DNA of 47,387 bases from a bacterium (GTDB taxonomy: Bacteria; Krumholzibacteriota; Krumholzibacteriia; G020349025). The position numbers and the translations under genes are program-made. The notes under the pieces are model-generated. The model saw only the letters and a list, made by a program, of their open reading frames with translations, was not told where the DNA came from and ran no database searches. Shown here one piece after another: positions 3,827 to 23,995 of the stretch (positions are counted from its first letter, which is position 1; each line of letters starts with the position of its first letter). The stretch covers positions 1-47,387 of the forward strand of contig JANLSU010000022.1 in the NCBI GenBank assembly GCA_031362565.1. The letters run 5' to 3'.

Positions 3827-6800
3827 CGCAGCACCGCCAGTTTGCGCAGATACCGGCCGCCCTGCGGTCCGTCGATTTGCAGGCGCAGGAGATAGGTGCC
3901 GTTGCGGACGAATTGCCCGGCGCCATTGCGCCCATCCCAGAGCAAGGTGTCGAAGAGGCCGGCCGGCAACGCCCGGCCGTCGATCAGGCGCACCACACGG
4001 TCGCCGGTCAGGGTGTAAATCTCTGCCGTGACGCGCGCATCGGCTGGCAAGTAGAAAGCGATGTGGGTCGATTCCCGTCCCGCCACGAAGGGGTTCGGAT
4101 AGTTGCTGAAGCTGGCTTCGACCGTTGGCGCCAACACGTGCACGGTCGGCGATGTGTACAGGAGCGTCCTGCCGTCGAGTCCGACCGCGGTCAAGGTGTT
4201 GCCGCCGGAGGTCGCCACCAGCGCCGAGTTTCCGATGACGAGCCGCACGTCGTCGGTAGCAGGCGCGGCGCGAATATCGAGTTCGAGTGCGAAATCGAGC
4301 GCTGCCGCCGGCGCCAACGGCGCGAGCGCCGCCAAGTCGAATTGCAGGCTGTCACCGGCCAGAGTCGCCGCGACCACCGTGCCCGCCGCCACCAACCGCG
4401 CCGCCGAAGCGAACGATGTGGCTGCCAGCGGCTTGGCGTTCGCGTCTTGCACCCGAACCACGAGCGTCGAAAGTGCCAGCGCCGCTTGATTGGCGTTGCC
4501 GGGATGAGCGATCTGGAGCCCCAGGAGTGCGGCGCCACTGGCGCCACGGGTCACGTTGGCGGGCGGTCCGGTCGTGACACCCAGGGCGACTTGGGTGGGC
4601 GCGGTGACGATGCGAATGAGATCGCTCGCAAACGGCAGTGATCCGGCCGGCAAGAGGGGTCGCGATGGATCATTTGCATCGCGCAGGCGCAGCGCGTCGG
4701 CATCGAATGCGAACCGCACCCACGCATGCTCGAGCGGCGACACGAGATCGGCTTCGAGTGTCAGCGCGACGGAGTCGCCCGGGGCGATCGCGACCGGCGA
4801 CGTCCACGGAATACTGATTGCGGCTCCGGCATCCGGAATTGCCGGCGCCGATGCAACGATCACTCCCGCTTGCCGAACTCGCAAGGCGCGGAGCACGCCG
4901 CGCGGCACGAGCCCATTGCCGGCATCGTCGAGGGTGCGGACAACGAGTTGCGTCAGCTCGATCGCGGCACTGCCCACGGGATCGACGTCGCGGATGACGA
5001 CATCGGCTACAGCCACGGATGCGGCGCCCGGAAATGAACTGGCGGGCGTCCGTGAGACGATTCCTGCGATCGCGTCGACGGCGGCGGTTTCGAGAGTCGC
5101 GAGGCCCAGGGTGCGCGGCATGGGATCGGCCGGGACTGGCTCGACCGGCACGAGAACGCCGCTCACGGCGTCGCGTGTCACGACATCGGTCGCGGCCGCC
5201 AGTTCCAAGCGCAGCGAACTCGCCGTCGCATTGGCCAAGATGTCGACGACCACGTCGACCGGTTCCGGCGCTCCCGAGGCGATCGTTTTCGGAATCGTCA
5301 GCGGCAACTGCAGGCGCCCGCTGCTGGTGTCAAAGGTCGACGTCGAGAGCAGAATGGTCGAGTTGCTGCGGATTTCGAGCCGTCCGAGCGCCGTGCTTGG
5401 ATCGAGCGGCGCGCCTGCCGCATCACGCACGTCGAGAGCGATCTGCGTCAGCCGGACTTCGCTCTCACCGGGTTGCCCCGGGACCGTGAACGTGATTCGG
5501 CCGGCCACGATGTTCGTCTGGCCGCGGTCGAGGCGCGGTGGCAAAAGGGCAACGATGGCAGCATCGACATGCGGGGTCGGCGTCCGGAGTGCCGCGGCTT
5601 GCGAAGTCCAGGGCAGCGACGCTTGAATCGTGACCGGCGCCGCACTGTTGGCGTCGATGGCGCTCACACCTGTCGCATCCACCACGCGCAGGCGGAAACT
5701 TGTCGCGGTTGCCGTTGCTGCAATCGCTACCTGCAGCGTGACGCTCCGCTCTTCGTCCGGCGCGAGCACGATCGGCGTACTGAGATCGACCTGCACCCAA
5801 GAGGTGTCCGGCGGGCTCGTCGAGGCCGCATAGACGGTGTTGCCGCTCCGAATGTCGAATGCCGACAGCACCGCAGAGGCGCGTTCCGCTACTCCCGATT
5901 GATCTTCGACGACGAACGCCAAGCGTTGCACGACGATGGGGGCGGCCTGCGCACCGTGATCGGGATGCAGGAGTTTCCAGGTGCACGCGACGATGCCGCT
6001 CTGCCCACGGCTCAATAGGGCCGGCAGGCTCGAGAGCATCGTGACACCCAGGCCCGTCGGCGGTTCTTGCACTTCGATACCGGCGCTCGAAGCCGGGGCG
6101 CTCTCGACACTGCTGTCAGGCCGGCCGACGACGGCGATCAATTGGGTCGAACCCGCGGCGTCGAAGTGGATGCGATAGGCGAGTGTATCGCTCACTCCGG
6201 GTGCCAGCTGAACCCTTGCCGGCACCGGGCCCGATTCAATCTGGAATGGGAGCGCCGGCGCCGCTTCGAAGCGGAGTGGCGCGATGCTGTCCAACGCGAC
6301 CGAACCGCGGTTGCGGGCCATGATGTGCACCGTCAAGCTTTGGCCGCGGCTGGCGCGCAGCGGCTGCACGAATGTCGTCGCGAGGAGTGCGCTGGCGGAC
6401 ATGTGATGTACGGTGGATCCGACAACCGGTGAATCGATCGGCCCATCGTTCGCAGATGCGACCTGCAAGCCGCCGAGCGGCACCTGCAATTGCATGGTTC
6501 GTCCGTCACCGGGTGCAGGCGCCGCATCGACCGTGACATAGAAGCGGTGTCCGCCGGTGGCGATCGGTGCCGCGAGTCCCCCGAACCGCAGCGCACCGCC
6601 CCCAGGGGTGAGTGTCCGCAACAGGATGTCCGTCGCCGCATCGAAGTGCGCCGCCGCGGGATCGAGGTCGCTTTCCTGCCAGAGGCGAATCGCCGCGATG
6701 TCGGGTCCGAACTCAGCCCCCGTGGGCGATGCCACGAACTCGACTGTGAGCGCCTCCAAGACGTCACTGTCGAGGCCGTTGGACGGCACGCGCAGGTCCA

Positions 6801-9800
6801 GGGTCACGACGTTTGTTTCGCCGCCACCAAGGGTCTGTGGGACGATGGCGCGGCTTTCGATCGCCCGCGCCAACACTCCATCGATGGTGTCGAGGCCCGG
6901 CGAATTGATCTCGAACTCGGCCGCGGTCGACGTCGTTCCCTGGCCACTGACCGCATAGGTGAACGAATTGGCATCGACAATGGCGGCATCGGCAGTCGAC
7001 GCATCTCGGGCGTTGCCGTCCGCCAGTGAATACACGACGAGCAAGCGCGCCTGTACGAGCGGTAAGACGTCGAAGGCGAAGGAACCGAAGTGCACGCTGC
7101 CGGCGTTGGCCGTGGCGGTCGCGAGTGGTGCTTCGCTCGCGTCGACGATGCCGTTTTGGTTGGTGTCCGCGTACAACCTCCAAACGTCGTACTCGAGATC
7201 CCCGGCCGTGCCGCGCGTCGCGACGTCGAGTGCAACCAAGGTGCGCGCCTGGGAGTAAGTGTTCAGGACTTCGAGGTTGAGAATGGTGCGATCGCGCCCA
7301 TCCGGATCGACGGTATGGTCGCCCACGACGCCGGCCACCCAGATGACTTGGTTCGGCGATGCAAAGACCAGCGGTCCGCCGCCACGCAGTTCGTGGTCGA
7401 CGGGACCATCGTTGCCGCTCGTGACGGTGACGCCCCCCGCCGGCACCCGCGCCTCGAACGTCCGGCCGGTCGTGGCGCCGGTTGCGGGGCGCACGGTGAC
7501 GATAAAACGCTGCGGTAAGCCCGCACGCAGCGGCAGGCTGAGTGTGGGTGACACCCAGGTGCGATCGCCCTGCGACACGAGTGGCGTGACGAGTGCGTCG
7601 CCGGCCCCGAGGACGCCGTCGCCATCCTCGTGGCGTAATGCGACCACTCCGACATCGGATGCCGTCACCGTTCCATTGTTCTCGATTTGCAGTCCGGTGA
7701 GGACATCGTCCTCCAAACCGTTCGCCGGCAGTTCGAAGTCGAGAGCGATCGTCTCGCCGCTGCCGGGTGCCAGAATGCGGTTCGTGATGGGCCGGACGCC
7801 ATAGCCCGCTGCCGATTGCCCATCGATGACCGGCGGATCGAGGGTCTGCAGCGCGCCGGAGACCTGCACGCTGAGTGCGCCGGAGGTCACGACATCCGTG
7901 GCATTCGCGACCCGCACCGCGAGTTGCTCGCCGTCGCGGATGTCGAGCGAGTCAGGCGTCAGCGTCACAAGGAACCGGTGCGGTTGCGCATCGAGAACGA
8001 CATGCAACAGACCCGTGGCGCCGAATACCAGCGAATCACCCGGCAGTGGGACGATTGCCTCGAGAAGCGGATCGGTATCACTCCGGACACCGTTGCCATC
8101 GGCGTCCGACCAGAGTGCGGCGCGCACCAATTCGGCGTTGGGGTTGGCGAGGGCGCCGCCCGGGCCACTCGCCAGGTTGCGCAGGCGGAGCAGGCGTAAG
8201 GTATCGGGCGCCGCTGCAACCGCGGTCAATTCGAGACCCAAGACCGCCAAGTCGGTCGAGGCGCGCGGCACGATGCCGGGCGCCGTGATGGGCGCCCGAG
8301 AAACGAACAGTGTATGCGGTGACTCGAGCGTCAGCACATTCGGGTTGTCCCACGCCGCGTCGACCGGACCCGTGCGTCCCGACGCGAAATCAAGGCTCGA
8401 GAGCGGCAATTCGAACTGTATGGTGCGGCCGGCTTCGCTCCCGAGCGCGGCATCGGCGATGACCCGTACCCAAAGGCCGGCGACCGGCACCGGAAGATGC
8501 AGATCGCTCGCCGCCCAACGGCCGCCGCCCGTGTGCACGAGATCGGCCACATCCGTCCACGGCGACGGACCGCTTTGGAGTTTCAGGTGTTCGATCTCGA
8601 GTCCCGCCCGCGCCGTTCCAAGCTGCCGGACGCCGAACGCGGTGAGTGAGTCGGCGCTGCCGCCGTCGTCCGGTAAACGCAGTTCGAACACGCTGTGATC
8701 GGTGGTTCCGGCGACGATCGTTCCGGCCGCGACCGGCTGGAAGACGACTTGCGCCTGCACGAAGTCATGGACGTGAACCGCACCCGCGCTCTGCAGTGGA
8801 AAATCGGCGACCAGCGCCGTCGCCGCCGCCCAGAAGATGTCGCCAACCGCCGCAACGCCTGCATCCGCGGTGCTGCCGTGCGCGGCGGCGGTCATCGACA
8901 CGTCGCCGGTGACGAACAACGTTTGCGACGTACCCACCGCCAGGTCGACACTCAACCCCGTCGCCGTCCATGTCCCGGCACTCGGCGCGCCCATGGCGAG
9001 TTCCGTGTCCTGGGGCGGGTCGAAGCCACCGTCACCATCGTCGCGCCACAGGTGGAGCGCCGTCAGCGGCCCAGAGACCTGGGCTCGCAACGCGGTCAGG
9101 CGGCGCACATCCAGATAGCGATTGGTAAGGCGCAGCGTGAGCAGCAATGCGGCCGGCGTTCCCGGCGTCACACTTTGATCGCCGGCTGCCAGGGCTTCGA
9201 CTTGCACGGCGGGCAGCACGGTCACGGTTGCGGCGGCCGACGTGAGGCCGGCGTAGGTCGCTGTGACGTTCACGGTGCCGAGCGCGATCGCGGTCGCAAC
9301 GCCGTTCCCATCGACGTACAAGAGACCCGGCGCGTCGGATGCCCAGGTCGAGAGCGCCGTTACGTCGGCGGTCGATCCATCGCTGAACGTCGCGCGCGAC
9401 GTCATCTGCTTGGTGCGGCCGAGCCGCAGTGTCGTGCTGGCGGGCAGCACGCTCACCAAAGTCGGCGTCGCCGGATTCACTTGCAGGCGGGCGGCAAGCG
9501 CCTGCACTCCGCCGACCGATGCTCCGACGGTCGTCAACCCGACGCCATGCGTCGTGACGAGTCCGCCGGCCTCGGCGGTCGCCACCAGCGTGTCGGCTGT
9601 CGACCACACGGCGAGGTTGGTGACGTCGTAGACGCTGGCATCGGCGTGTGCAAAGGCGCGATAGGGCAGTGTCGCCCCCAAGACGACGACCGTATCGGCG
9701 GGTGCAATGTGGAGCGAGTCCATGGCCGTGTCCCCGACGCGCACCGTGCAAGGCAGAGACGTGACACCGGAGAACGTGGCTTGTACGAGGGCGACACCCG

Positions 9801-12690
9801 GGCTGCCAGTGTGCAAGACGCCCGTCGAGTCGACGATGGCGACTGTCGAATCAGTCGTCGCCCACGTCGACTGCGCGGTACGGTCGGCATGGGTGCCGTC
9901 GTTGAAGAAGGCAGTTGCCGTCAATCCGTAGTCAGTCGCGGGCGGCAGCGCGATCGGTGCCGGCGAGACGCGAACGCTGTCGACGACACCCACGACGGGC
10001 GGGGTGACCGAGATGGAAATGTTGTTGCTCGTGACCCCGCCGAGTGTCGCGCTGACGGATGCCGTGCCGACGGCCGCGGAACTCGCGAAGCCGTCGGTGG
10101 CCACCGTCACAATTCCGCCCGGCACGGTGTTCCAGGTCACAGTTCCGGTCACGTCGAGCAAGGGCCCGCTCGAATAGGTTCCGGCGGCATGCAGCTGCAC
10201 GCCGTCTCCGAGGGCGATTGTCGACACCGGAGGCGTCAGCGTGATGAACAGGAGCTCTGGCGGGTTGACCGTCAACGTTGCCGTGTTGCTTGTCACGCCG
10301 CCGAGCGTCGCCGTGATAGCGGCCGAACCTTCGGCAAGCGAGCGTGCGAAGCCATCGGCGTCCAGGTCTACGACTCCGGGCGGCGCAGGTGTCCAGGTGA
10401 CGACACTCGTCAAGTCGAGCGTACTGGCGTCCGTATACGTGCCCTGCGCCTGCATCTGCACCGAGAAGCCGAGCGCAACGGTGGTGTCCGTGGGACTGAC
10501 GTGAATGGAGACGAGTTCCGCCGGCGTGACGTTGGCGGTCGCGGGCGGCGACTCGATGCCGGAGAGCGTTGCCGTGATCTTCGCTGTCCCGTTCCGCACG
10601 CCTTGGATCTGGCCGGGCCCGGTGACATGGGCCACCGTCGGGTCATAACTCGCCCACGTGGCGCTCGCCGTGACCGCGACACTGTCGCCGTTCTCGTAGA
10701 TACCGTAGGCGTCATACGCTTGGGTGACGCCGGCAGGGAAGGAAGCACTGGCCGGCAGCACCCGGACGTGGACGAGTGCCGGGGGATCAACTTGCAAGCG
10801 TGCCGCGGCACTGGTCCGGCTGGCGAACGTTGCGTTCACTTGGCCCGTGCCGGTGGAGTCAGTCGTCAACACGCCCGGCTTGCCGGCGAATGTGCCCAAG
10901 GCCGGGGGGGTCACCGCCCAGGTTGCGAACTCCGAGATGTCGGCGGTGTCGCCGGTGTTGTAGGTTGCGACGGCTCGATAGGGGACGGAATGCCCGGAGG
11001 CGACCGTCGTATCGGCCGGGGTCACCGCGATGCTGGTGATCGTCCCGGTGGTTGTCCGCACGGTCCACGTGTTGCCGTCGCCGGGAACGCCGTTCGCGTT
11101 GCCTTTGGACGCCGCCTGAGTCGTGTAGCCGCGCCGGTCATGGTCGATGATCGAGGCGAAATCGTCCCCGGAGGAATTCGCAACAAGTGGCGTTCCGGCG
11201 CGGAACACGAGGTCGAGGCGCGGATCGATGCTCCCAAGTCCGACTGGCGGGCTCCAGCGCACGTCGATGACGTTGCCCAGTCCCCACACTTCGTACTCGC
11301 CGCTTGTGAGCCGGGCGTCGGTGTTGGCTGTCAGAGGCAGACCCGCCGCGCGAAGGGAATCAACGCGGGTCGGCGTGAATCCCGCCGGCACGGTGATCGT
11401 GACCCGGTTCATCCCGGTGGTCGCCGCGTCGAAGCCACCGCGAACCGTATAGACGAAGCGCTGGTTTGGCACATTGGTGAGCACGTCGTTGGGAACGATT
11501 TCGGCCGTCGCACTGACGACTGCCGGGGCGGTGTACGTGTTTGGCGGAGCCAGCACGATGACCAGGCGCGCCGCGCGGTTGGAGCCGCTTTGTGCCTCGC
11601 GCGTCGCGAACGTCACACTGCGGCCGCTGGTCGCAGATGTCGCACGCAAGAGCACGCCCTGATTGGTGCGCGTCCCGGCGATCCAGTCTGCCGCGAGCTG
11701 CCGCAAATTGATCGCGGCAAACGAAGTGCTCGCGTCGACAATGGTCGACCCCGCCAACGTTGCATCATAGTAGCCGCCCTGGACCGTCCAGTTGTTGGTG
11801 CAGTCACGAGTGTCCCACGTGGCGCCGCCCACGCACCGGGCGTCATCCTGCGTTCCCTCGGTCCAGGTTTGCCGCAGCCGGTTCACGTTGATGGTGATCG
11901 GGGCGCCGGATGCGGCAGCCGGCCAGAGTTCCAGATACGCGGCTACCACGTCGTAGCCGACCGGCACTGGCGTGAGTCCCAAGTTGAACTGGAGCAAGCC
12001 GCGGCGGTTGTCACTCGTGTCGAAGTTGACCAGCGCCGCGCCGCCGTAGTTGTTCTGGTTCCCGCCGTTGGTTCGGTGGAGATAGGTGTCCATTTGCAGT
12101 GCCGGGACGATCGCAACGGCGTTTTCGTCCTCGATCCAGGTTGGCGCGCCGTGCGCCACTTGGCGTGCCGTCAGCAAACCGCGCACGACACCCAGGTGAT
12201 GCACGGGCTGGCCGATGCTGCCCACGGCCCGCACTTGCAGATCGACGAGCGTCGTGGCACCAATCCCGAGCGCGCTGATCGACAGCCGCAACGAGTCCGC
12301 GAAGACTTTCACCCGCAGATCGGTATCGGCAATCGCGGCGCCGTTCAACGTGATGCTGTTCGGAACGTAGCGCGCGGTCGAAGCAATCGAATACACGTAG
12401 TCGATGGTGCCGACGAGCAGAAGTCCGGACTGGTTGATTTGAAGACGCGCCGTGATCGGGTCGCCGGTCGAAGCGATGACCCGGTCAGCCCCGAGTGTCA
12501 CCGTAGCGCTACCGATCACCGGCAACGCGTGGACCGGCCCACAAAGCGCCAAGGCAATCCAGGCAACCCAAGCGGGTTGGGTGATCCGGCGTCGGAAAGG
12601 GTGCCCTGGCGGACCAGCTTGGTCCACCGGGCCGCCTGGCGGCGCCCGCATCGGGAGTCGGAACTGCATCGGGCAATGTCCCACGAACAA
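3823..12690 (-). CDS. Giant secreted/surface protein: DNRLRE-like domain, 7 Big_2 Ig repeats, further repeated beta modules, C-terminal FlgD-Ig/T9SS-A-like domain
   Basis: 2955-aa ORF (true start uncertain, 12627-12690). Signal peptide ending PVHA; DTYL..NYG..RGLLQFNL (DNRLRE-like); C-terminus NYPNPF..IYTLTGDRV..WDGRNGAG..NGTYLLRL..RKLAVLR. Confidence 0.88.
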   Translation of the reverse strand: MFVGHCPMQFRLPMRAPPGGPVDQAGPPGHPFRRRITQPAWVAWIALALCGPVHALPVIGSATVTLGADRVIASTGDPITARLQINQSGLLLVGTIDYVYSIASTARYVPNSITLNGAAIADTDLRVKVFADSLRLSISALGIGATTLVDLQVRAVGSIGQPVHHLGVVRGLLTARQVAHGAPTWIEDENAVAIVPALQMDTYLHRTNGGNQNNYGGAALVNFDTSDNRRGLLQFNLGLTPVPVGYDVVAAYLELWPAAASGAPITINVNRLRQTWTEGTQDDARCVGGATWDTRDCTNNWTVQGGYYDATLAGSTIVDASTSFAAINLRQLAADWIAGTRTNQGVLLRATSATSGRSVTFATREAQSGSNRAARLVIVLAPPNTYTAPAVVSATAEIVPNDVLTNVPNQRFVYTVRGGFDAATTGMNRVTITVPAGFTPTRVDSLRAAGLPLTANTDARLTSGEYEVWGLGNVIDVRWSPPVGLGSIDPRLDLVFRAGTPLVANSSGDDFASIIDHDRRGYTTQAASKGNANGVPGDGNTWTVRTTTGTITSIAVTPADTTVASGHSVPYRAVATYNTGDTADISEFATWAVTPPALGTFAGKPGVLTTDSTGTGQVNATFASRTSAAARLQVDPPALVHVRVLPASASFPAGVTQAYDAYGIYENGDSVAVTASATWASYDPTVAHVTGPGQIQGVRNGTAKITATLSGIESPPATANVTPAELVSIHVSPTDTTVALGFSVQMQAQGTYTDASTLDLTSVVTWTPAPPGVVDLDADGFARSLAEGSAAITATLGGVTSNTATLTVNPPELLFITLTPPVSTIALGDGVQLHAAGTYSSGPLLDVTGTVTWNTVPGGIVTVATDGFASSAAVGTASVSATLGGVTSNNISISVTPPVVGVVDSVRVSPAPIALPPATDYGLTATAFFNDGTHADRTAQSTWATTDSTVAIVDSTGVLHTGSPGVALVQATFSGVTSLPCTVRVGDTAMDSLHIAPADTVVVLGATLPYRAFAHADASVYDVTNLAVWSTADTLVATAEAGGLVTTHGVGLTTVGASVGGVQALAARLQVNPATPTLVSVLPASTTLRLGRTKQMTSRATFSDGSTADVTALSTWASDAPGLLYVDGNGVATAIALGTVNVTATYAGLTSAAATVTVLPAVQVEALAAGDQSVTPGTPAALLLTLRLTNRYLDVRRLTALRAQVSGPLTALHLWRDDGDGGFDPPQDTELAMGAPSAGTWTATGLSVDLAVGTSQTLFVTGDVSMTAAAHGSTADAGVAAVGDIFWAAATALVADFPLQSAGAVHVHDFVQAQVVFQPVAAGTIVAGTTDHSVFELRLPDDGGSADSLTAFGVRQLGTARAGLEIEHLKLQSGPSPWTDVADLVHTGGGRWAASDLHLPVPVAGLWVRVIADAALGSEAGRTIQFELPLSSLDFASGRTGPVDAAWDNPNVLTLESPHTLFVSRAPITAPGIVPRASTDLAVLGLELTAVAAAPDTLRLLRLRNLASGPGGALANPNAELVRAALWSDADGNGVRSDTDPLLEAIVPLPGDSLVFGATGLLHVVLDAQPHRFLVTLTPDSLDIRDGEQLAVRVANATDVVTSGALSVQVSGALQTLDPPVIDGQSAAGYGVRPITNRILAPGSGETIALDFELPANGLEDDVLTGLQIENNGTVTASDVGVVALRHEDGDGVLGAGDALVTPLVSQGDRTWVSPTLSLPLRAGLPQRFIVTVRPATGATTGRTFEARVPAGGVTVTSGNDGPVDHELRGGGPLVFASPNQVIWVAGVVGDHTVDPDGRDRTILNLEVLNTYSQARTLVALDVATRGTAGDLEYDVWRLYADTNQNGIVDASEAPLATATANAGSVHFGSFAFDVLPLVQARLLVVYSLADGNARDASTADAAIVDANSFTYAVSGQGTTSTAAEFEINSPGLDTIDGVLARAIESRAIVPQTLGGGETNVVTLDLRVPSNGLDSDVLEALTVEFVASPTGAEFGPDIAAIRLWQESDLDPAAAHFDAATDILLRTLTPGGGALRFGGLAAPIATGGHRFYVTVDAAPAPGDGRTMQLQVPLGGLQVASANDGPIDSPVVGSTVHHMSASALLATTFVQPLRASRGQSLTVHIMARNRGSVALDSIAPLRFEAAPALPFQIESGPVPARVQLAPGVSDTLAYRIHFDAAGSTQLIAVVGRPDSSVESAPASSAGIEVQEPPTGLGVTMLSSLPALLSRGQSGIVACTWKLLHPDHGAQAAPIVVQRLAFVVEDQSGVAERASAVLSAFDIRSGNTVYAASTSPPDTSWVQVDLSTPIVLAPDEERSVTLQVAIAATATATSFRLRVVDATGVSAIDANSAAPVTIQASLPWTSQAAALRTPTPHVDAAIVALLPPRLDRGQTNIVAGRITFTVPGQPGESEVRLTQIALDVRDAAGAPLDPSTALGRLEIRSNSTILLSTSTFDTSSGRLQLPLTIPKTIASGAPEPVDVVVDILANATASSLRLELAAATDVVTRDAVSGVLVPVEPVPADPMPRTLGLATLETAAVDAIAGIVSRTPASSFPGAASVAVADVVIRDVDPVGSAAIELTQLVVRTLDDAGNGLVPRGVLRALRVRQAGVIVASAPAIPDAGAAISIPWTSPVAIAPGDSVALTLEADLVSPLEHAWVRFAFDADALRLRDANDPSRPLLPAGSLPFASDLIRIVTAPTQVALGVTTGPPANVTRGASGAALLGLQIAHPGNANQAALALSTLVVRVQDANAKPLAATSFASAARLVAAGTVVAATLAGDSLQFDLAALAPLAPAAALDFALELDIRAAPATDDVRLVIGNSALVATSGGNTLTAVGLDGRTLLYTSPTVHVLAPTVEASFSNYPNPFVAGRESTHIAFYLPADARVTAEIYTLTGDRVVRLIDGRALPAGLFDTLLWDGRNGAGQFVRNGTYLLRLQIDGPQGGRYLRKLAVLR
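9205..11042 (-). repeat. Seven ~87-aa bacterial Ig-like (Big_2) repeats within the giant protein
   Basis: Repeating pattern of the form SIxVxP..T(V/I)..G...A.(G/A)TY..G...D(V/L)T...TW.....G......G...(V/I).AT..G.TS seen seven times; boundaries approximate. Confidence 0.85.
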
Positions 12691-12873: not shown

Positions 12874-14283
<1,410 letters not shown>

Positions 14284-14285
14284 GA

Positions 14286-15917
14286 CTACGTCCTCCCCCA
14301 GTCGAAGCTCGGCCGCTCGGGCCGGCCGTACAATTTGAGCGCGCCGCGGTCACCGACCGCGTTCGGACGCTGGAAGACCCAGTTTTGCCAGGCGGAAAGC
14401 CGCCCAAAGACTTTGCTGCCCATGCTCTCGGCGCCGGCGACGCGGAGCGACGCTTCCATGCCGGTCAGTGCATCGGGCGAGAAGCTGGCGCGTTCTTCCA
14501 TTGCGACCCGCACTTCGTCTTCGTAGTCGATCTCGTCGGCGACGAAGGTGACGATGCCGGCGTCCTCCGCGGCTTCCGGATCGTACGGGCCGCCGGCGAG
14601 AATCTCGGCGACACGCCCCGGTGTTGCCATGTGGCGTACCGCCAAGCGTGTCGGGCCGTGCGTCATGGGCAAGGCACCGCCATTCAGCGGGCTCATGGTG
14701 AAGTGCACGGGTTGCTTGGCGTCGTCGAGCGCATAGGTACGATCGGCGGCGAGCGCCAGTTCCAGCAACGAGCCGGCGAAACACGAACCCGGTTCGGCAA
14801 GCGCGAAGAAGCTGCGCGCCGTTTGATCCATGCGCCGCAGCACGCGCGCCACTTGCAGCAGGATCTCACGCGCGAACCAATCGTCACGCAGGTCCCAGAG
14901 CGCCCGGTCCCAGGCGACAACGGCGTTCGCGTCGCCGCGTGTTTCGACGACGACGAGCCCGCAGGTCGGCTCATTGAATCGCAGGTGGAGGAGTGCGGCA
15001 TCGATTTCGCGGAACACTCGCAAGCTCCAGGCTTCGGCGCCGAGGGCGCGAAGCTCGGCAGCGGTTTTGGGCGGCGCCGACGCCGGCCCGTGCACCATGA
15101 GGCGCGCTTGGCGCTTGGCGCGGTCGACTTGTACGGTGACGTAGCGATAGCGGATGGCATCCGCAGTCACTTCGGGGTCGAGCGCACTCAGTGTCACGCC
15201 CGGTCCCGCTTTGGCGGTTGCTTTGGCGGCCGCGTCCTGGGCGCGCTTCTGTACTTCCGTTTCGAACTTGCTGCGCGGGATGATCGCATCCACCAACCGC
15301 CAATCGACGGCGCGCTTGCCGCGCATGCCTTCGGCCAATGTGCAAAAGATGTCGGCGCGGTCGCGCCGCACGTGGCGTTTGTCGATGACGCGCGTCAGGC
15401 CACCGGTGCCGGGCAGGACGCCCAAGAGCGGGACTTCGGGCAAGCTCACGGCCGAGCTGCCGTCGTCCATCAGGACGATCTCATCGCAGGCGAGCGCTAG
15501 TTCGTAGCCACCGCCCGCTGTTGTGCCGTTGCAGGCGGCGATGAAACGGATGCCGCTTCCCGCGCTGGCGTCTTCGAGGCTCAGGCGCGTTTCGTTCGTG
15601 TACTTGCAAAAGTTTACTTTGAAGGCGTGGGTCGAGCTTGCCAGCATGTGGATATTGGCGCCGGCGGAGAAGACGCGGTCCTTGCCGCTCGTGATGAGAA
15701 CGGCCCGCACTTCCGGATGCTCGAAGCGCAAACGCTGCACGACGTCGGCGAGTTCGATGTCGACGCCTAAGTCGTAGGAATTGAGCTTGAGGACGTAGCC
15801 CGGGCGCAACGGCCGGTCTTCCTGCACGTCCATGACGAGCCGTGCGACGGGGCCCTCGAACGCCAGTTTCCAGTGCACGTAGCGATCGGGATGGGTCTCG
15901 AAACGAATCGGGTCCAT
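14286..15917 (-). CDS. boxC: 2,3-epoxybenzoyl-CoA dihydrolase BoxC
   Basis: FETHPDRYVHWKL, LKLNSYDLGVDIEL, KVNFCKYTNETR, AGGGYELALACD, FGRLSAWQNWVFQRPNAVG. ATG at 15917 chosen; 2-nt gap to boxB. Confidence 0.96.
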   Translation of the reverse strand: MDPIRFETHPDRYVHWKLAFEGPVARLVMDVQEDRPLRPGYVLKLNSYDLGVDIELADVVQRLRFEHPEVRAVLITSGKDRVFSAGANIHMLASSTHAFKVNFCKYTNETRLSLEDASAGSGIRFIAACNGTTAGGGYELALACDEIVLMDDGSSAVSLPEVPLLGVLPGTGGLTRVIDKRHVRRDRADIFCTLAEGMRGKRAVDWRLVDAIIPRSKFETEVQKRAQDAAAKATAKAGPGVTLSALDPEVTADAIRYRYVTVQVDRAKRQARLMVHGPASAPPKTAAELRALGAEAWSLRVFREIDAALLHLRFNEPTCGLVVVETRGDANAVVAWDRALWDLRDDWFAREILLQVARVLRRMDQTARSFFALAEPGSCFAGSLLELALAADRTYALDDAKQPVHFTMSPLNGGALPMTHGPTRLAVRHMATPGRVAEILAGGPYDPEAAEDAGIVTFVADEIDYEDEVRVAMEERASFSPDALTGMEASLRVAGAESMGSKVFGRLSAWQNWVFQRPNAVGDRGALKLYGRPERPSFDWGRT

Positions 15918-15962
15918 GCACGCTCCGAAGATTTGGGCGCGCGAGCGTCGCGCGCCGGTGCG

Positions 15963-16019
15963 GCAGTATACTGCATGTGGAGTGTCTTGCAATCGCTTCG
16001 TTGATGCACTATAGTGCAT
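15963..16019. promoter_or_regulatory. Divergent boxC/boxR promoters with two BoxR/BzdR-type palindromic operators
   Basis: Perfect palindromes GCAGTATACTGC (15963-15974) and ATGCACTATAGTGCAT (16004-16019, TGCA-N6-TGCA). Plus strand TTGCAA(15987-92)-17-TATAGT; minus strand TTGCAA-16-TATACT. Confidence 0.8.
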
Positions 16020-16022
16020 GTC

Positions 16023-16988
16023 ATGCCGAACCCCGGACGCGCCGCAAACAAGTCCAATTCTTCGCCCGGCGATCTCCTGGGTGCACTCGGCCAGCGGGTG
16101 CGTGGGGAGCGCGAGGCGCGCGGCGAAAGTCGCGCTGCGCTCGCCGCGCGCTCCGGCGTATCGCTCCGCTTCTTGGCGCAACTCGAGTCGGGGAGCGCCA
16201 ATATCTCACTCCTGCGCTTGCACGAAGTCGCGCAAGCACTCGGGCTCGGGCTGGCGCCGCTTTTGGAATCGGCGAGTGTGTCACGATCGGCCGCACCTGG
16301 AGCTGCGGCGCCGGTCACACCGGGCGGTGGTCGCTCCGTGACGCAGCGCGCGACATCTCGCGCCGCGGTCGAAGCGCTGATCGCCAGCCGCACCGAACCG
16401 GAACTGGAGGAAGTGCGCGACTGGCTCGCGGCGCGTTTTGCGACGACCGGCGGCCCGTTGGTCGCCTTGCTGGGTCTACGCGGCGCCGGCAAGAGCACCG
16501 TCGGCCATCGTCTCGCGCGCCGCCTGCGCGTGCCATTCTACGAGTTGGATGCGCTCATTGAGAGCGCCGCGGGGATTCCGCTGGCGCAGATCTTCGAATT
16601 GCAGGGCGATGCGTACTACCGCCGGCTCGAGCGCGAAACGCTGGCGCGCTTTCTGGCAACGACACCCGCCGGCGTGTTGGCCACCGGCGGCGGGCTCGTC
16701 ACCGACCCCGAGACCTACGCATTGCTTCGCCGCCGTTGCCGCACTGTTTGGCTCCGCGCCGAACCCGAACTGCATTGGCAGCGCGTGATGCGCCAGGGCG
16801 ACCGCCGTCCAATGCGCGACAATCCCGCCGCCATGCAAGAGTTGCGGGCACTGCTCGCCGCCCGCACGCCGCTCTATGCGCAGTCGCACCACACCATCGA
16901 CACGACGGGCCGCAGTGCCGTCGAAGTCGCCGCGCGGGTCGCGGCGCTTGTGCAGAAGCCACACCGGCCGGTCCAGCCAGCATCGTAG
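16023..16988 (+). CDS. boxR: BoxR/BzdR-family regulator (XRE HTH + shikimate-kinase-like domain)
   Basis: N-terminal HTH (LAARSGVSLRFLAQLESGSANIS) and C-terminal LLGLRGAGKSTVG, VLATGGG, RVMRQGDRRPM; divergent from boxCB. Confidence 0.9.
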   Translation: MPNPGRAANKSNSSPGDLLGALGQRVRGEREARGESRAALAARSGVSLRFLAQLESGSANISLLRLHEVAQALGLGLAPLLESASVSRSAAPGAAAPVTPGGGRSVTQRATSRAAVEALIASRTEPELEEVRDWLAARFATTGGPLVALLGLRGAGKSTVGHRLARRLRVPFYELDALIESAAGIPLAQIFELQGDAYYRRLERETLARFLATTPAGVLATGGGLVTDPETYALLRRRCRTVWLRAEPELHWQRVMRQGDRRPMRDNPAAMQELRALLAARTPLYAQSHHTIDTTGRSAVEVAARVAALVQKPHRPVQPAS

Positions 16989-17100: not shown

Positions 17101-17769
17101 ATGTCGCCGCGACACTTCTTTGCGCTCATAAGCGTGCCGCTGTGGATCGGCGTGGCCGTCACCGGCTGTAACCACCATGTGGCCGATCCGCCAATCATCA
17201 TCGGCGGCATCCAAAGCGAAGCCGAACTCATCAACCGGTTGAAGACCGCATATCAGAAACGCGACTACGACACATTCGCAACCCTCTTCCACCCCGACTA
17301 TCAATTCTTCTTGAACGAAGCCCAACCGGATGGCACCACATTGTGGGGTCTGACGGACGAACTGCGCATTCACCAGCGCATGTTTCATCCCCAAGGCACA
17401 ATCCCACCGGTGCCACCGGAATTGTGGATCGTCAGCATTGATGTCACGCTCGTCGCGCGCGACGCATTTCGCGACGTGCCTAGCGCGTATCTCGGTCCCG
17501 AGAACCCCACGGGATTCGCTCGCGAGAATTTCGCCGTGACGCAAGCGGACTACGCAGCGTCCATTTTCTTCCAAACCCAGGGTCAAACCCAATACCGCGT
17601 CGACGGTGTGGCGAGCTTCGTGGTTGTGAACGATCTCTCCAAGGTGCTGGGAGACGACGGCAAGTTTCTGATCTACCGCTGGGAAGACCTCGGGACCTTC
17701 GCGTCGTCGTCGAAGTCGCAGACGACGTGGACCGGCGTCAAATCGCTCTATCGGGTGGGAGGAATCTGA
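17101..17769 (+). CDS. Putative lipoprotein, paralog 1 (short form; possible NTF2/SnoaL-like domain)
   Basis: GGAG RBS, lipobox-like VTGC, core ELINRLKTAYQKRDYDTFATLFHPDYQF..QTQGQTQYRVDG..IYRWEDLG, tail TTWTGVKSLYR. Confidence 0.8.
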   Translation: MSPRHFFALISVPLWIGVAVTGCNHHVADPPIIIGGIQSEAELINRLKTAYQKRDYDTFATLFHPDYQFFLNEAQPDGTTLWGLTDELRIHQRMFHPQGTIPPVPPELWIVSIDVTLVARDAFRDVPSAYLGPENPTGFARENFAVTQADYAASIFFQTQGQTQYRVDGVASFVVVNDLSKVLGDDGKFLIYRWEDLGTFASSSKSQTTWTGVKSLYRVGGI

Positions 17770-18770
17770 TGTCGCGCCGAAGCGCCTTTGCACTCGCGAT
17801 TGTTCCGCTGTGGATCAACCTGGCCGTCACCGGCTGCGACCACAGCACCGGTGTGCCGGACTTCGCGCCGCCGGCAGCGATTGGCGACTTGGGTTCGTAT
17901 GGTGTGAGCTCCACGACGGTGGTCCTGCGGTGGACAGCGCCAGGGAACGATGGAACACTCGGCACCGCCGCACAGTATGATGTGCGGCATTCGCTCACGC
18001 CGATTACCGATACTTCCTGGGACGCGGCCACTCCGGTCGCCGCGGCTGACGTCCCGAGCCCGGCCGCTGCTGGGACACTCCAAGAACTCACGATCGCGGG
18101 ACTGACGCCTCACCAGGTGCATTACTTCGCCCTGCGCGCAACGGATCAAGCTGGGAATCGGGCCGCAATCTCGAACTCGATCCTTGCCGCGACCGAAGAC
18201 TGGGGACGCGCCCAAAGCGAAGTTGAACTCATCGGTCAGTTCGAGATGGCGTATCGGACCCGTGACTTCGACAAGTTTCGCCTTCTCTTCCATCCGGACT
18301 ACCGATTCTACTTGAACCAGGCGCAGCCCGATGGCACCACTTCTTGGGGTCTGACCGAGGAACTGCGGATTCACCGGCGCATGTTCCGTTCCCAGGATTC
18401 GTTCCCTGGGGAGTACCCGGTGCCGCCGGATCTGTGGCTGGTGAGCATCGATATCACGCTCAACCTACGCGGCCCGTTCCAGGACGCCCGGTCGTATTAC
18501 TTCGACCCAATTTCGAACCCCGACGGCTTCCATCGCGAGGATTTCGCAGTGACGCAGGCCGACTACGTGGCGTCGTTGTTCTTTCAGACCCAGGGCGAAA
18601 CTCAATACCGCGTCGACGGCGCCGTGAACTTCGTGGTCGTGAACGATCTCGCCAAGGCGCTGGGCGACGAGGGGAAATTTCTCATCTATCGCTGGGAAGA
18701 CTTGGGAAGCGGTCGATCGCTCACGGCCGAAGCGAAGACCTGGGGCTCCATCAAAGAGCTCTACAGCTAG
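17769..18770 (+). CDS. Putative lipoprotein, paralog 2 (FN3 + shared core domain)
   Basis: TGATG overlap with paralog 1; VTGC lipobox; FN3 (LRWTAPGNDG..YDVRHS..YFALRATD.AGN); same core; tail KTWGSIKELYS. Confidence 0.85.
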   Translation: MSRRSAFALAIVPLWINLAVTGCDHSTGVPDFAPPAAIGDLGSYGVSSTTVVLRWTAPGNDGTLGTAAQYDVRHSLTPITDTSWDAATPVAAADVPSPAAAGTLQELTIAGLTPHQVHYFALRATDQAGNRAAISNSILAATEDWGRAQSEVELIGQFEMAYRTRDFDKFRLLFHPDYRFYLNQAQPDGTTSWGLTEELRIHRRMFRSQDSFPGEYPVPPDLWLVSIDITLNLRGPFQDARSYYFDPISNPDGFHREDFAVTQADYVASLFFQTQGETQYRVDGAVNFVVVNDLAKALGDEGKFLIYRWEDLGSGRSLTAEAKTWGSIKELYS

Positions 18771-18811
18771 AGGCACAATGCCGTCCTCCTCCTGGCCGAC
18801 CGGAGATCGCA

Positions 18812-19489
18812 ATGGCGCCGAGACAGTTCCTTGCGCTGGTATGCGTTTCTCTATGGAGCAGCGTGGCCGTTACCGGTTGCCGCAACCCAGACTCTCCACT
18901 CATTGTGTGCAAATCCTGTTGGCAGGCGGCGGCTCGAAACGAAGATGAACTCATCGGCCAGTTGAAAGCGGCGTACCAGCACCGTGATTACGATTCGTTC
19001 GGCGAAGCCTTGCACCCGGGGTACCAATCTGATTTCAGTCGACCAGACGGCACCACGAGCTGGGGTCTGACGCAAGAGCTGCGTATTCACCGCCGGATGT
19101 TCCGTCCAGAAGACGTGCGGCCGGACGAACATCCCGTGCCGCCCGACTTGTACCTCGCGAGCGTCGACATCACGCTCACGGCACGCGATTCGTTTCGGGA
19201 CGCGACCGCGTACTACTTCGACCCCGTCACGAATCCGGGTGGTTTCCATCGCGAGAGTTTCACGGTCACCCAGGCGGTCTACCAGGCGAGCGTGTTCTTT
19301 CAAACCCAGGGCGAAACGCAATACCGCGCCGACGGCGCCGAGACCTTCGTGGTCGTGAACGATCTCTCGAAGCCGGTGGGTGCCTCCGGGAAGTTCCTCC
19401 TTTATCGCTGGCAAGAGTGGGGGAACGGTAAATCGTCCGCACGGCAGAACACGTCATGGGCCAGTGTGAAAATGCTCTATGGCGACTAA
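18812..19489 (+). CDS. Putative lipoprotein, paralog 3 (short form)
   Basis: Leader cggagatcgcaATG nearly identical to paralog 1 (cggagatcacaATG); VTGC lipobox; same core; tail TSWASVKMLYGD. Confidence 0.8.
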   Translation: MAPRQFLALVCVSLWSSVAVTGCRNPDSPLIVCKSCWQAAARNEDELIGQLKAAYQHRDYDSFGEALHPGYQSDFSRPDGTTSWGLTQELRIHRRMFRPEDVRPDEHPVPPDLYLASVDITLTARDSFRDATAYYFDPVTNPGGFHRESFTVTQAVYQASVFFQTQGETQYRADGAETFVVVNDLSKPVGASGKFLLYRWQEWGNGKSSARQNTSWASVKMLYGD

Positions 19490-19500
19490 GAGGGGGAACG

Positions 19501-20505
19501 ATGTCGCTCCGAAATGTGTTGGTGCTCATCGGGATACCGCTGTGGATCAACGCTGCCGCCACTGGTTGCGACAACACGACGGGCGTGCCCGACCTGGCGC
19601 CACCTGCGGCGGTGGTCGACTTGCACGTGGATGATGTGACTACCACCTCGGTCGTTCTGCGGTGGACGGCGCCTGGGAACGACGGGTCGAACGGCACCGC
19701 CGCGCGGTACGACGTCCGCCACTCGGCGGCACCGATCACTGACAGTTCCTTCGATGCCGCGACGGCCGTCGCAGCCGCTGACGTCCCGAACCCCGCGGCT
19801 GCCGGGACTCCCCAGGAACTCACGGTCGCGGGGCTGACGCCACACGCAGTGCACTACTTCGCGCTCCGCGCCACGGATCGCGCCGGGAATCGGGCGGCGA
19901 TCTCGAACCTGATCCATACCGCGACTGAAAACTGGGGGCACGCCCAAAGCGAAGACGAACTCATCGGTCAGCTCAAGATGGCGTGTCAGGCGCGGGACTA
20001 TGACGGGTTTCGTCGTCTCTTACACCCGGGGCTTGCATTCTTCCTGAACGAACCCGCGTACGATGGCACCGCGCAGTGGGGCCAGGCGGAGGAATCGCGA
20101 ATTCATTTCCGCATGTTCCGCCCGGAGGCGGTGCAGCCGCCGGAACCAGCCGTGCCGGCGGAATTGTGGCTCGTGAGTGTCGACATTACGCTTACCGCGC
20201 GCGACGGGTTTCGAGACGCGACCACCTACTATTACGACCCCACTACAAATCCGACCGGCTTCCACCGCGAGGACTTCGCTGTTTCGCAGACGGACTATGC
20301 GGCGTCGGTGTTCTTCCAAACTCATGGTGAGACGCAATACCGCGTCGATGGGTCCCAATACTTCGTGGTCGTGAACGACCTCGCGAAGTTGCCAGGTGAC
20401 GAGGGCAAGTTTCTCCTGTATCGATGGGAGGACCTGGGGGCGCAGGCATCGGTTGCCAAGTCCCCCTCGACTTGGAGTTACGTCAAGTCCCTCTACAGGA
20501 GATAA
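19501..20505 (+). CDS. Putative lipoprotein, paralog 4 (FN3 + shared core domain)
   Basis: GAGGGG RBS, ATGC lipobox-like motif, FN3 highly similar to paralog 2, same core, tail STWSYVKSLYRR. Confidence 0.85.
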   Translation: MSLRNVLVLIGIPLWINAAATGCDNTTGVPDLAPPAAVVDLHVDDVTTTSVVLRWTAPGNDGSNGTAARYDVRHSAAPITDSSFDAATAVAAADVPNPAAAGTPQELTVAGLTPHAVHYFALRATDRAGNRAAISNLIHTATENWGHAQSEDELIGQLKMACQARDYDGFRRLLHPGLAFFLNEPAYDGTAQWGQAEESRIHFRMFRPEAVQPPEPAVPAELWLVSVDITLTARDGFRDATTYYYDPTTNPTGFHREDFAVSQTDYAASVFFQTHGETQYRVDGSQYFVVVNDLAKLPGDEGKFLLYRWEDLGAQASVAKSPSTWSYVKSLYRR

Positions 20506-20616
20506 GGGCGAGTCACGCCCGTCTTGGAGATCGTGATGTCGCGTCGGCGCTTCCTGCGCTCGTGATCGCTTCGGTGTGCATCAGGCCGCCACTCACGGCA
20601 AACATCTCCCGCAGTT

Positions 20617-21573
20617 TTACCGGAAAAGCTGCTTCATTTCGCCCCAGGACTTCTGCTGTACGCCGATCGTCCAATCGGGCAGATTCGTCGCCAGCCAAAT
20701 CGTGTACTGGTCGTTCAACGACGACGCGAACACCAGCCGGTCACCTTGTGCCGACCACGAGGGATGCGCATCATACGCTGGGCCCGAAGTCACTTGAACC
20801 GGAGTGCCGCCCGACGCCGCGATCACCCAGATGTTCCGGTTGCCGTTGCGGTCGGACGCATACGCAATCCACATCCCTTGCGGCGACCACGCGGGCTCGC
20901 CGTCGAATTCCGGCGTTTGGGTGAGCTGTCGTTCGGAGCCATCGCTGCTGCGGATCCACAGATCCCCGCCGCGCTCGAAGACGAACTGCAGGTTGGGCCC
21001 CCACGATGGGAAATGCCCGCCGCCCGCGACCATCATCGGCGTTCCACCGCCGCTCGGTACGATGTAGATTCCGCCCACTCCGACGCACGCAATCGAGCTC
21101 CCGTCGAGCGACCAGGCTGGATCGGCGAAGGCGCCGCTCGCGACATGCGTGGGCGGGGGAACCAGTGGGTTGCCGACCGACCTGGTCCAGATCCCAGAAC
21201 TCTCCACGGCGAAGGTGCCGATCGCGTACGCCACCCGGGTTCCATCGGGGGACCAGGCTGGAGACCTCGCATTCGCGACGTAGAACGTCCCACTGCATGA
21301 CGTGCCATCGATGCCGGTCATGACGAGGTACGGCCACCACTGGAAGGTCGGAGGTGACGACTCCTCGTGCGCAAACACAACACAGTGGCCGTCCGCCGAA
21401 AGCGACGGTCCGGTGAGCGCGCACCACGAAGACCCGGTGGGCTGCGAGCATTCGACGACCGGCCGTAGTTCGACCGCCGCGGCGGCCGTGGCGACAGTCA
21501 GCATCAAGCCTGAAATCACTGGCAGCAAGCGCAGATGCGGTGCCGAGACCCGTCGATTAGCGAGAACGTGCAT
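20617..21573 (-). CDS. Secreted TolB-like/PD40 beta-propeller protein
   Basis: GGAGG RBS; signal peptide; repeats PAWSPDG, PAWSLDG, PSWGP, PAWSPQG, PSWSAQG, YASDRNGNRNIW; tail KSWGEMKQLFR. Confidence 0.88.
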   Translation of the reverse strand: MHVLANRRVSAPHLRLLPVISGLMLTVATAAAAVELRPVVECSQPTGSSWCALTGPSLSADGHCVVFAHEESSPPTFQWWPYLVMTGIDGTSCSGTFYVANARSPAWSPDGTRVAYAIGTFAVESSGIWTRSVGNPLVPPPTHVASGAFADPAWSLDGSSIACVGVGGIYIVPSGGGTPMMVAGGGHFPSWGPNLQFVFERGGDLWIRSSDGSERQLTQTPEFDGEPAWSPQGMWIAYASDRNGNRNIWVIAASGGTPVQVTSGPAYDAHPSWSAQGDRLVFASSLNDQYTIWLATNLPDWTIGVQQKSWGEMKQLFR

Positions 21574-22212: not shown

Positions 22213-22298
22213 GGAGGATTAGCCTAATTGGCAAGGCAGCAGTTTTGAAAACTGCCGACCGCAAGGTCCTGGGGGTTCGAGTCCCTCATCCTCCGCCA
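22213..22298 (+). tRNA. tRNA-Ser(TGA)
   Basis: Acceptor stem GGAGGAT/ATCCTCC, G discriminator + CCA, anticodon arm GCAGT-TTTGAAA-ACTGC, long variable arm, GTTCGA T-loop. Confidence 0.95.
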
Positions 22299-23786: not shown

Positions 23787-23880
23787 GGAGAGATGCCCGA
23801 GTGGCCGAAGGGGCTCGCCTGCTAAGCGAGTGTAGGGGCACAAACTCTTACCGAGGGTTCGAATCCCTCTCTCTCCGCCA
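23787..23880 (+). tRNA. tRNA-Ser(GCT)
   Basis: GGAGAGA/TCTCTCC acceptor, anticodon arm CTCGC-CTGCTAA-GCGAG, long variable arm, GTTCGAATCC, GCCA end. Confidence 0.97.
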
Positions 23881-23918
23881 GTGTCGCCTGCTTGTGCAGG
23901 CCAGGAGACGACGAACGC

Positions 23919-23995
23919 GCGCCCATAGCTCAACTGGATAGAGCGTCTGACTACGGATCAGGAGGTTGGGGGTTCGACTCCTCCTGGGCGCACCA
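23919..23995 (+). tRNA. tRNA-Arg(ACG)
   Basis: GCGCCCA/TGGGCGC acceptor, TAGCTCAACTGGATAGAGC D-arm, anticodon loop CTACGGA, GTTCGACTCC, ACCA end. Confidence 0.97.

Follow-up and report, generated by a model that had tools for sequence, protein, structure and literature searches.

A short C-terminal tag on exported proteins of Krumholzibacteriota and its candidate NTF2-like receptor module

A 47,387-nucleotide contig (JANLSU010000022.1, assembly GCA_031362565.1; hereafter the window) of a bacterium of the phylum Krumholzibacteriota carries four lipoprotein genes and, on the opposite strand, a gene for a TolB-like β-propeller, all of which end in a similar short peptide (Table 1). Assignment of the genome to this phylum is also inferred from Atlas taxa, from the closest relatives of its SprA and from its separation from the phylum of the Eisenbacteria record. 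The original prediction, made from the nucleotide letters alone, had proposed that this tail, hereafter the tag, is a protein-sorting signal. Our analysis of the whole genome and of its relatives leads to a more specific reading: on balance, the tag is probably a docking peptide that is read by an NTF2-like lipoprotein, NTF-B, belonging with a second such lipoprotein, NTF-A, and a β-barrel to a module that exports and/or anchors the tagged proteins.

A portable C-terminal tag on exported proteins

All five tails in the window were confirmed, at distances of 5, 1, 2, 2 and 1 residues from the stop codon, and each of the five proteins begins with a putative export signal, as had been claimed: a lipobox (..TGC) on the four plus-strand lipoproteins and a type I signal peptide on the propeller. 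Among 50,273 stop-to-stop open reading frames (ORFs) of at least 60 amino acids from the 5.4-Mb genome, a strict form of the pattern occurs 77 times within six residues of the stop, as compared to five times further inside; four of these five inner copies lie no more than 13 residues from the stop, and one is deep inside a protein. An 18-column position-specific scoring matrix (PSSM), trained on the terminal matches of the strict pattern, gives at least 21 bits to 133 ORF ends, while all of the remaining ends and all internal windows score below 12 bits. The motif is far beyond chance. On the window's contig, the five ORFs alone score with this PSSM. Checking ORF ends by pattern and profile across the genome and its relatives, as the original prediction had recommended, revealed a terminal, genome-wide motif, which is not confined to a few genes but is found on the 133 ORF ends and throughout the phylum.

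The tag follows the consensus [PT]-[VT]-[AG]-V-[EQ]-x-x-[TS]-W-[SG]-x-[VI]-K-x-L-[YF]-R and typically comprises about 16–18 residues, beginning with [PT]-[VT]-[AG]-V-[EQ]. The short W-K-L-Y/F unit initially described thus stands as the core, and the typical tag extends further upstream, through the [PT]-[VT]-[AG]-V-[EQ] part. The propeller of the window has this upstream part, and the four lipoproteins lack it. The distance from the Trp residue to the chain end is nine residues in 88 of the 133 tailed chains, and the tag has neither a hydrophobic or transmembrane (TM) segment nor a basic cluster. No match to the tag was found among NCBIfam, Pfam or PDB entries (for NCBIfam, 0 of 75 tails), and the tail by itself found no usable match in an Atlas search. 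A literature search, outside of which most subscription journals and supplements lay, found no description of the tag or of the module.

The bodies of the 133 tailed ORFs fall into 77 single-linkage sequence clusters with many unrelated folds, and the tail is free on cohesin-fold cargo; paralogy alone is therefore no explanation, as had been argued from the five genes. With a signal-peptide heuristic, applied to our own gene calls with approximate starts, 113 of 132 tailed proteins were positive, as compared to 845 of 3167 other genes (those without later TM segments), which bears out the expected enrichment on signal-peptide proteins. Pfam searches of 65 of the 133 tailed ORFs detected S8 and trypsin-like proteases, a phosphoesterase, CHRD, ice-binding proteins, NHL, Kelch and PD40 propellers and the thioester domain TED, and most of the scanned ORFs gave no match. 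No clearly cytoplasmic family appeared among them, consistent with the initial impression that cytoplasmic proteins do not carry the tail.

The same genome encodes numerous proteins with the type IX secretion system's (T9SS) C-terminal domain (CTD), with at least 149 matches to TIGR04183 and 234 ORFs recognized by a local CTD profile; the signal-peptide heuristic was positive for 178 of 233 of them. The tag and the CTD never occur on one ORF (0 of the 133 tailed and 0 of the 234 CTD ORFs). Moreover, two S8 protease paralogs, 53% identical over 518 residues, swap tail and CTD at the same point, as does a second paralog pair (49% over 201 residues), and a cohesin-fold family of 37 members comprises 27 tailed proteins, eight with a CTD and two with neither. 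The tailed proteins have a median length of 230 residues, versus 701 for the CTD proteins. The spread, the signal-peptide enrichment, the exclusion of the CTD and the lack of a match to a known family support the original idea of a portable short helix, devoid of a TM segment, that serves as a sorting or partner-binding signal. The tag is almost certainly a portable targeting tag.

Several families with such swaps deserve mention. The cohesin-fold family consists of 37 unannotated, Cys-rich genes of about 155 residues, with the domain always single and N-terminal. The tail presumably resembles a dockerin helix, and cohesin was considered as its receptor; this was ruled out, as the domain is single and N-terminal, is also found on CTD proteins and is not packed against by the tail, and it was assigned to the cargo. 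A tailed thioredoxin-like protein (contig C75, L130:2825–3367, minus strand) reads through one TGA as U-G-E-C, has an intact signal peptide and, judging from its sequence, is likely a selenoprotein with a tag; its paralog on contig C11 has a CTD in its place. One NHL propeller, a relative of a tailed one (contig C36:17376–19118), ends in a TM-bearing CTERM, which we take to be IPTL-like, directly before an exosortase-family gene. This CTERM may represent a third interchangeable C-terminal signal.

Predicted docking on an NTF2-like lipoprotein and the associated barrel

In AlphaFold2 models, the tail of the cohesin-fold cargo forms a free coil and helix, with a predicted local distance difference test (pLDDT) of 59–61, while that of the first window lipoprotein forms a bridge and a helix lying on the NTF2 domain (pLDDT 81–94; mean of the whole model 92.9). 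The alternative raised with the original prediction, that the tail is simply an integral part of each fold, thus holds for the lipoprotein family alone and not for the cohesin-fold cargo. The packing of the tail on the lipoprotein's own NTF2 domain led to the receptor candidate, NTF-B, which is a tail-less core lipoprotein of the genome with 66% identity to the first window gene. The receptor domain has the cone-shaped α+β fold with a cavity that characterizes the NTF2-like superfamily (Foldseek E 2e-6; VIA-align Z 14.3, with a root-mean-square deviation of 2.7 Å over 125 residues, to 3rob_A).

Tail-less NTF-B was modeled in complex with the last 32 residues of the propeller, an unrelated protein, in three runs and with three controls. 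The interface score ipSAE was 0.90 (0.89, 0.90 and 0.91 in the three runs), as compared to 0.02 for the best of the three controls, the contacts agreed by at least 93% between runs and the partner pLDDT was at least 66. In the model, partner residues 17–25 and 27–32 lie in the NTF-B interface. Tag residues 20–22 run along the NTF-B strand 149–152, and Lys28 of the tag contacts residues 51, 69, 72, 73 and 76 of NTF-B, with position 69 being Asp or Glu in 49 of the 51 family rows. No solved structure resembling NTF-B or the tail chain by sequence was found, but the alignments to some NTF2-like structures cover the tail region. The peptide docking suggested at the outset gave a positive result with NTF-B. 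Of the receptors then proposed, Omp85, PorV and PorU, none is the best candidate, and the evidence points to an NTF2-like lipoprotein and an uncharacterized barrel. Given this predicted docking, it is very likely that an NTF2-like lipoprotein binds the tag.

NTF-B is encoded in the operon tatD-ksgA-barrel-NTF-A-NTF-B-polysaccharide deacetylase-secD-secF. The order barrel, NTF-A, NTF-B is kept in all 21 loci from two phyla, which had been chosen by a match to either gene, and extra NTF2 paralogs, often tailed, follow NTF-B in some of these loci. NTF-A itself ends in a worn copy of the tail helix in the 21 loci and in a clear copy, such as SWSDLKGRFY, in Ignavibacteria. The NTF2 paralogs are expanded in tail-rich genomes, and tailed ones arise in several separate NTF-B lineages in a quick tree of 109 domains, in which 41 of the 106 inner branches are open. 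A library-wide search with the tail profile yielded 130 matches, among which multi-copy matches rank first by construction; those read belong nearly all to the window lipoprotein family, apart from three repetitive chance matches. In these relatives, the motif follows each repeated domain, forms tandem arrays of two to four copies or stands right behind the signal peptide. Two NTF2-like proteins (P0071 and P0044) have one copy directly after the signal peptide plus a C-terminal copy. Such internal, tandem and N-terminal copies are as expected of a binding motif. The family also includes tail-less members (11 of 17 matches).

The barrel is a single-copy protein with about 600–700 residues beyond a variable N-terminus and a conserved DxD motif, and in this phylum it ends in an aromatic strand. 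By a rough estimate from hydrophobic periodicity, 31 amphipathic strand-like segments cover 596 aligned columns and leave no space in which a plug domain could fit. No PDB match was obtained for the barrel, and searches of Pfam and NCBIfam with 21 barrels (E up to 0.05) gave nothing beyond a weak generic barrel.

The tail profile matched 101 of 101 genomes of the same phylum (E 0.01) and 37 of 41 genomes of the Eisenbacteria phylum (E 0.001), where the four negatives hold weaker terminal copies, and all of 12 further tail-positive genomes contain the barrel (E 1e-49 or better). An apparent lack of the tail in Ignavibacteria (0 of 14) proved to be a sensitivity artefact of the profile (A1), as these genomes carry one or two copies. 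Likewise, narrow profiles (32/42 and 21/42 versus 0/14) had suggested that the barrel and the NTF pair are confined to the tail-rich phyla, a picture overturned by deeper profiles, with which the NTF pair was found in eight of the 14 genomes, namely eight of nine Ignavibacteria. Three Cloacimonadota genomes, one of WOR-3 and one further genome, all small and possibly incomplete, gave no match for the tail (A1), the NTF proteins or the barrel (A7).

In the phylum of Melioribacter, 56 of 151 genomes have the barrel as judged with a broader profile. The ancestral helix, searched with its own profile, was found in 50 of the 151, which were 46 of the 56 barrel-positive but four of the 95 barrel-negative genomes, or 41 of 51 barrel-positive ones without the five genomes that had supplied profile rows; as the genomes are kin, these counts are not independent events. 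Thus, the recommended profiling for a co-occurring partner showed that the motif tracks the barrel. Among the 29 motif loci read in this phylum, 24 encode a small immunoglobulin (Ig)-domain protein and five encode NTF-A. The small protein, of about 135 residues, consists of a signal peptide, one FN3-like Ig domain, which resembles the domain just before the CTDs in our genome, and the tail. A search for its family yielded 2,534 proteins out of 8,000 scored candidates, and among the 120 matches listed, all of the homologs end in RTWGSIKA[ML]FR. All four parts, the barrel, NTF-A, NTF-B and the tagged Ig protein, are present in a genome labeled Melioribacter roseus, a cultured species. The barrel likely acts in the same pathway as the tag; that it translocates the tagged proteins has slightly less than an even chance.

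A proposed route for tagged proteins and its alternatives

We propose the following route. Tagged proteins would cross the inner membrane by Sec, as suggested by their signal peptides. The tag, predicted to form a short strand and then an amphipathic helix with a near-invariant Lys, would be bound by NTF-B, with the strand joining the NTF2 sheet at its edge and the Lys entering a pocket beside the conserved Asp/Glu. NTF-B, NTF-A with its own helix copy and the single-copy, plug-less barrel of about 600 residues and some 30 strand-like segments may constitute one module: their gene order and co-occurrence are observed, and they would form a physical complex. This module most likely takes the tagged, mostly small proteins through the outer membrane and/or keeps them at the cell surface, alongside a T9SS route that would serve the larger CTD cargo. 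The PorU sortase might, less securely, clip and anchor the tags afterwards, as many of them begin with a PorU-type site. Ignavibacteria and relatives would use the module for one tagged client, the Ig-domain protein of about 135 residues, while this phylum and the Eisenbacteria phylum appear to have put the tag on tens to more than 100 proteins. The four window lipoproteins are seemingly NTF-B duplicates that acquired the tag and hold both the pocket and the ligand, and they probably act as extra, self-plugged docking sites or adaptors.

In its fullest form, the proposal is an undescribed outer-membrane secretion system, in which a plug-less barrel of about 30 strands and two NTF2-like lipoproteins read a 16-residue tag by donor-helix complementation. 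It would serve one client in Ignavibacteria and their relatives and be a main export route for tens to more than 100 small surface proteins in two uncultured phyla, beside a motor-less T9SS with which it perhaps shares the sortase. We advance this form tentatively, and its chances fall somewhat short of even.

The relation to T9SS needs to be considered in any reading of the tag. The genome contains one SprA, three PorU and seven PorV-family genes over the cut-off, and each of the 27 phylum genomes tested has both PorU and PorV-family genes. Searches of the genome for GldM and GldN gave no match, but no control genome matched either, and GldK and GldL were not searched. With its SprA, PorU, PorV and 234 CTD proteins, and with no GldM or GldN match in a search lacking a positive control, the system is possibly a T9SS without the known motor. 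According to two studies, PorU cuts the linker that precedes the CTD at a PT/GI consensus, and PorV is bound by motifs B, D and E, which lie on β-strands of the CTD (PMC11969387; PMC10202324); 22 residues of HBP35 are described as the part required for secretion of green fluorescent protein (GFP) (PMC11969387). In 91 of the 133 tags, [GAS]-[VIL] occupies the place of the PT/GI consensus, and the same residues lie in the predicted NTF-B interface. The CTD proteins of this genome have T[DG][VAT] 16–24 residues before the CTD in 66 of 131 cases, versus 16–20 in control windows, while a PSSM of the tail linker alone barely separates CTD linkers from controls (29% versus 14–26%). The [GAS]-[VIL] and T[DG][VAT] sites imply that a PorU site may open the tag; the tag is still no CTD. 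A comparison of 22 loci of the PorU-PorV operon revealed no tailed gene and no clear tail-specific gene.

Docking on NTF-B followed by PorU cleavage is counted here under the docking-and-export reading. A different role for T9SS, in which a PorV-family shuttle and SprA read the tag directly as a minimal T9SS signal, PorU cuts it and the binding to NTF2 is secondary or vestigial, draws on the presence of SprA, PorU and PorV-family genes, on the [GAS]-[VIL] and T[DG][VAT] sites just described, on the resemblance of the ancestral small client's Ig domain to the pre-CTD domain and on the 22-residue part of HBP35. We consider it improbable, as the tag is helical and lacks the strand-and-loop motifs B, D and E with which PorV is bound (PMC11969387). 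As cut sites, copies inside proteins, at N-termini or in tandem would be hard to understand, the [AG]V part is missing from the window lipoproteins, and the conservation of the linker residues can be explained by their place in the predicted NTF-B interface; the motif also tracks the barrel across the phylum sample. Somewhat less remote, although unlikely, is a pure tether, in which the tag fits the NTF2 pocket as dockerin fits cohesin and proteins are held on lipoprotein anchors in the periplasm or at the surface, while the barrel, which lets no cargo through, only serves to place or support the lipoproteins or has the small Ig protein as its plug. The predicted binding speaks for tethering as much as for export, and the internal and tandem motif copies in NTF2 paralogs, the expansion of these paralogs in tail-rich genomes and the single invariant client in Ignavibacteria, which looks like a subunit, fit it as well. 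However, the pockets are few and the clients many, the tag occupies the place of the CTD, a known export signal, in paralogs, and the types of cargo are those expected of surface proteins. An amphipathic helix that binds the membrane or lipopolysaccharide, or a shortened exosortase-type signal, would need no protein pocket; the Trp, Tyr, Lys and Arg residues on a short helix, the three exosortase-family genes of the genome and the tailed-propeller homolog with its CTERM beside one would suit it. Yet the TM segment that tripartite signals require, according to 10.1101/2023.06.07.544157, is missing, near-invariance over 11 residues across one phylum, among the matches listed, exceeds what lipid binding demands, and a specific pocket is predicted, so that we hold this to be very improbable. 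That the tail reflects paralogy or is part of each fold, with no signal role, is narrowly true of the four lipoproteins, whose helix is modeled as packing on the domain; genome-wide it is refuted by the 77 clusters, the many unrelated folds and the free tail on cohesin-fold cargo, and it has practically no weight.

Several points weigh against docking and export by the barrel module itself. The complex model supports binding but remains a prediction, it covers one receptor candidate, and it may have learned the contact from natural fusions of NTF2 domains and tails. Of 157 solved complexes, 116 attain the ipSAE mark, as do two of 215 mismatched pairs, counts that hold only roughly here as we used our own alignments. 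The strand estimate for the barrel is rough, the kinship of the genomes limits the co-occurrence argument, ten of the 56 barrel-positive genomes have no motif match, and at least one genome, G181, has the small tailed protein and no barrel match. The barrel and the NTF pair stand apart in the eight Ignavibacteria loci read. Size is a loose rule, as some tailed open frames in Eisenbacteria reach 750–1250 residues. PorV-family genes occur in every tail-positive genome tested and PorU in nearly all, so that the tag may yet depend on T9SS. Finally, seven NTF-B-type pockets in the genome face 133 tagged clients; this ratio fits transient passage better than permanent one-to-one tethering.

Compared with known signals, the tag shares with the T9SS type A CTD (TIGR04183, NF033709, TIGR04189, NF033707) its C-terminal place on Sec-exported proteins, the position that it takes in paralogs, a possible PT/GI-like site ahead of it and the presence of both systems in the same genomes. 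It differs even from the short CTDs of 40–55 residues of Prevotella intermedia (PMC11969387) in being 16–18 residues long and helical, with no β-sandwich or three-stranded sheet. Motifs B, D and E are missing from it, it is also found at internal sites and in tandem, and it has an NTF2-like lipoprotein as its predicted reader. None of the 133 tailed ORFs matches the local CTD hidden Markov model, and the tail is modeled as coil and helix. Tripartite CTERM signals (PEP-CTERM/exosortase, MYXO-CTERM) are likewise short, portable, C-terminal and many-to-one with their machinery, but the tag has no transmembrane helix and no basic cluster, and its candidate reader is a binding pocket, not an intramembrane protease; the portion of the CTERM study available does not mention Eisenbacteria or T9SS (10.1101/2023.06.07.544157). 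Overall, the tag matches no characterized sorting-signal model among CTD, tripartite CTERM and NCBIfam, which agrees with its initial description.

In cohesin-dockerin pairs and in chaperone-usher donor strands, a site on one domain is completed by a short element from the chain of its partner, the units repeat, and some subunits hold both site and ligand. The tag module resembles both in these respects. It differs from cohesin-dockerin in its NTF2-like receptor and in having no Ca-binding dockerin and no multi-cohesin scaffold in the genome: a dockerin pattern scan gave three unconvincing hits, and the 37 cohesin-fold proteins have a single domain each. Its barrel matches neither ushers nor another family. 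Type XI secretion (Slam/DUF560) is also reported to use a dedicated outer-membrane barrel to move lipoproteins or small proteins to the surface; the tag module differs in its much longer barrel region, lipoprotein partners and peptide signal, and none of the 21 barrels matched DUF560/Slam in Pfam or NCBIfam (E up to 0.05).

Tagged genes of the window, neighboring loci and implications

The five tagged genes and their tails are listed in Table 1.

Table 1. Tagged genes of the window and the positions of their tails
Feature	Position	Strand	Remarks
NTF2-like lipoprotein, 222 aa	17101..17769	+	Tailed paralog of the core receptor candidate NTF-B; AlphaFold2 mean pLDDT 92.9, NTF2-like fold
Tail TWTGVKSLYR	17725..17754	+	Helix W188-S193 (mature-chain numbering), predicted to pack on own NTF2 domain
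Lipoprotein, 333 aa	17769..18770	+	FN3 domain, NTF2-like domain and tail
Tail TWGSIKELY	18738..18764	+	
NTF2-like lipoprotein, 225 aa	18812..19489	+	With tail
Tail SWASVKMLY	19454..19480	+	
Lipoprotein, 334 aa	19501..20505	+	FN3 domain, NTF2-like domain and tail
Tail TWSYVKSLY	20470..20496	+	
TolB-like PD40 β-propeller, 318 aa	20617..21573	-	Type I signal peptide; ordinary cargo
Full-length tag of the propeller, IGVQQKSWGEMKQLFR	20620..20667	-	Predicted to dock as a peptide on NTF-B in the complex model

The tailed cluster lies directly upstream of a tRNA-Ser(TGA); the window has three tRNA-Ser and one tRNA-Arg genes, in 22213–22298, 23787–23995 and 32607–32696. On the other side, the lipoprotein genes adjoin what we take to be genes of the benzoyl-CoA (box) pathway (12874–16988), with a BoxB-like gene (12874–14283), a BoxC-like gene and a BoxR/shikimate-kinase-like regulator. 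The minus strand at 1757–12690 encodes a CTD protein of about 2,900 residues and then a PorV-family barrel fused to TPR repeats, and a similar pair is found on contig C123; most PorV-family genes of the genome adjoin their own CTD protein. Two tandem PorU copies on contig C85 (L051:7840–16609), together with a 54-residue ORF, have identical visible ends and represent a recent duplication or an assembly repeat, and the third PorU, on contig C131, has an N-terminal DUF4403 domain. The gene order at L051:664–3295 and at 20 PorU loci (L063–L082) is accA, PorU, PorV, an M6-like CTD protein, two small unannotated barrels and an NHL propeller. The propeller is present in 16 of the 22 PorU-PorV loci compared, and two Ignavibacteria PorU loci showed one small barrel.

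What is new here is the receptor candidate and the module. In the way it works the tag resembles a T9SS CTD or a dockerin, but it belongs to neither. It now has a residue-level candidate receptor in NTF-B and a candidate pore, and the presence of all four parts in the Melioribacter roseus genome makes the proposal testable at the bench. The 16-residue tag and a small soluble receptor might also be useful as a protein-engineering pair. If the barrel does export the tagged proteins, it would constitute a new bacterial secretion route, and if the module only tethers them, it would be a new code of peptides and pockets for assembling cell surfaces. In both cases, the roughly 130 tagged proteins of this genome, most of them unannotated, find their place.

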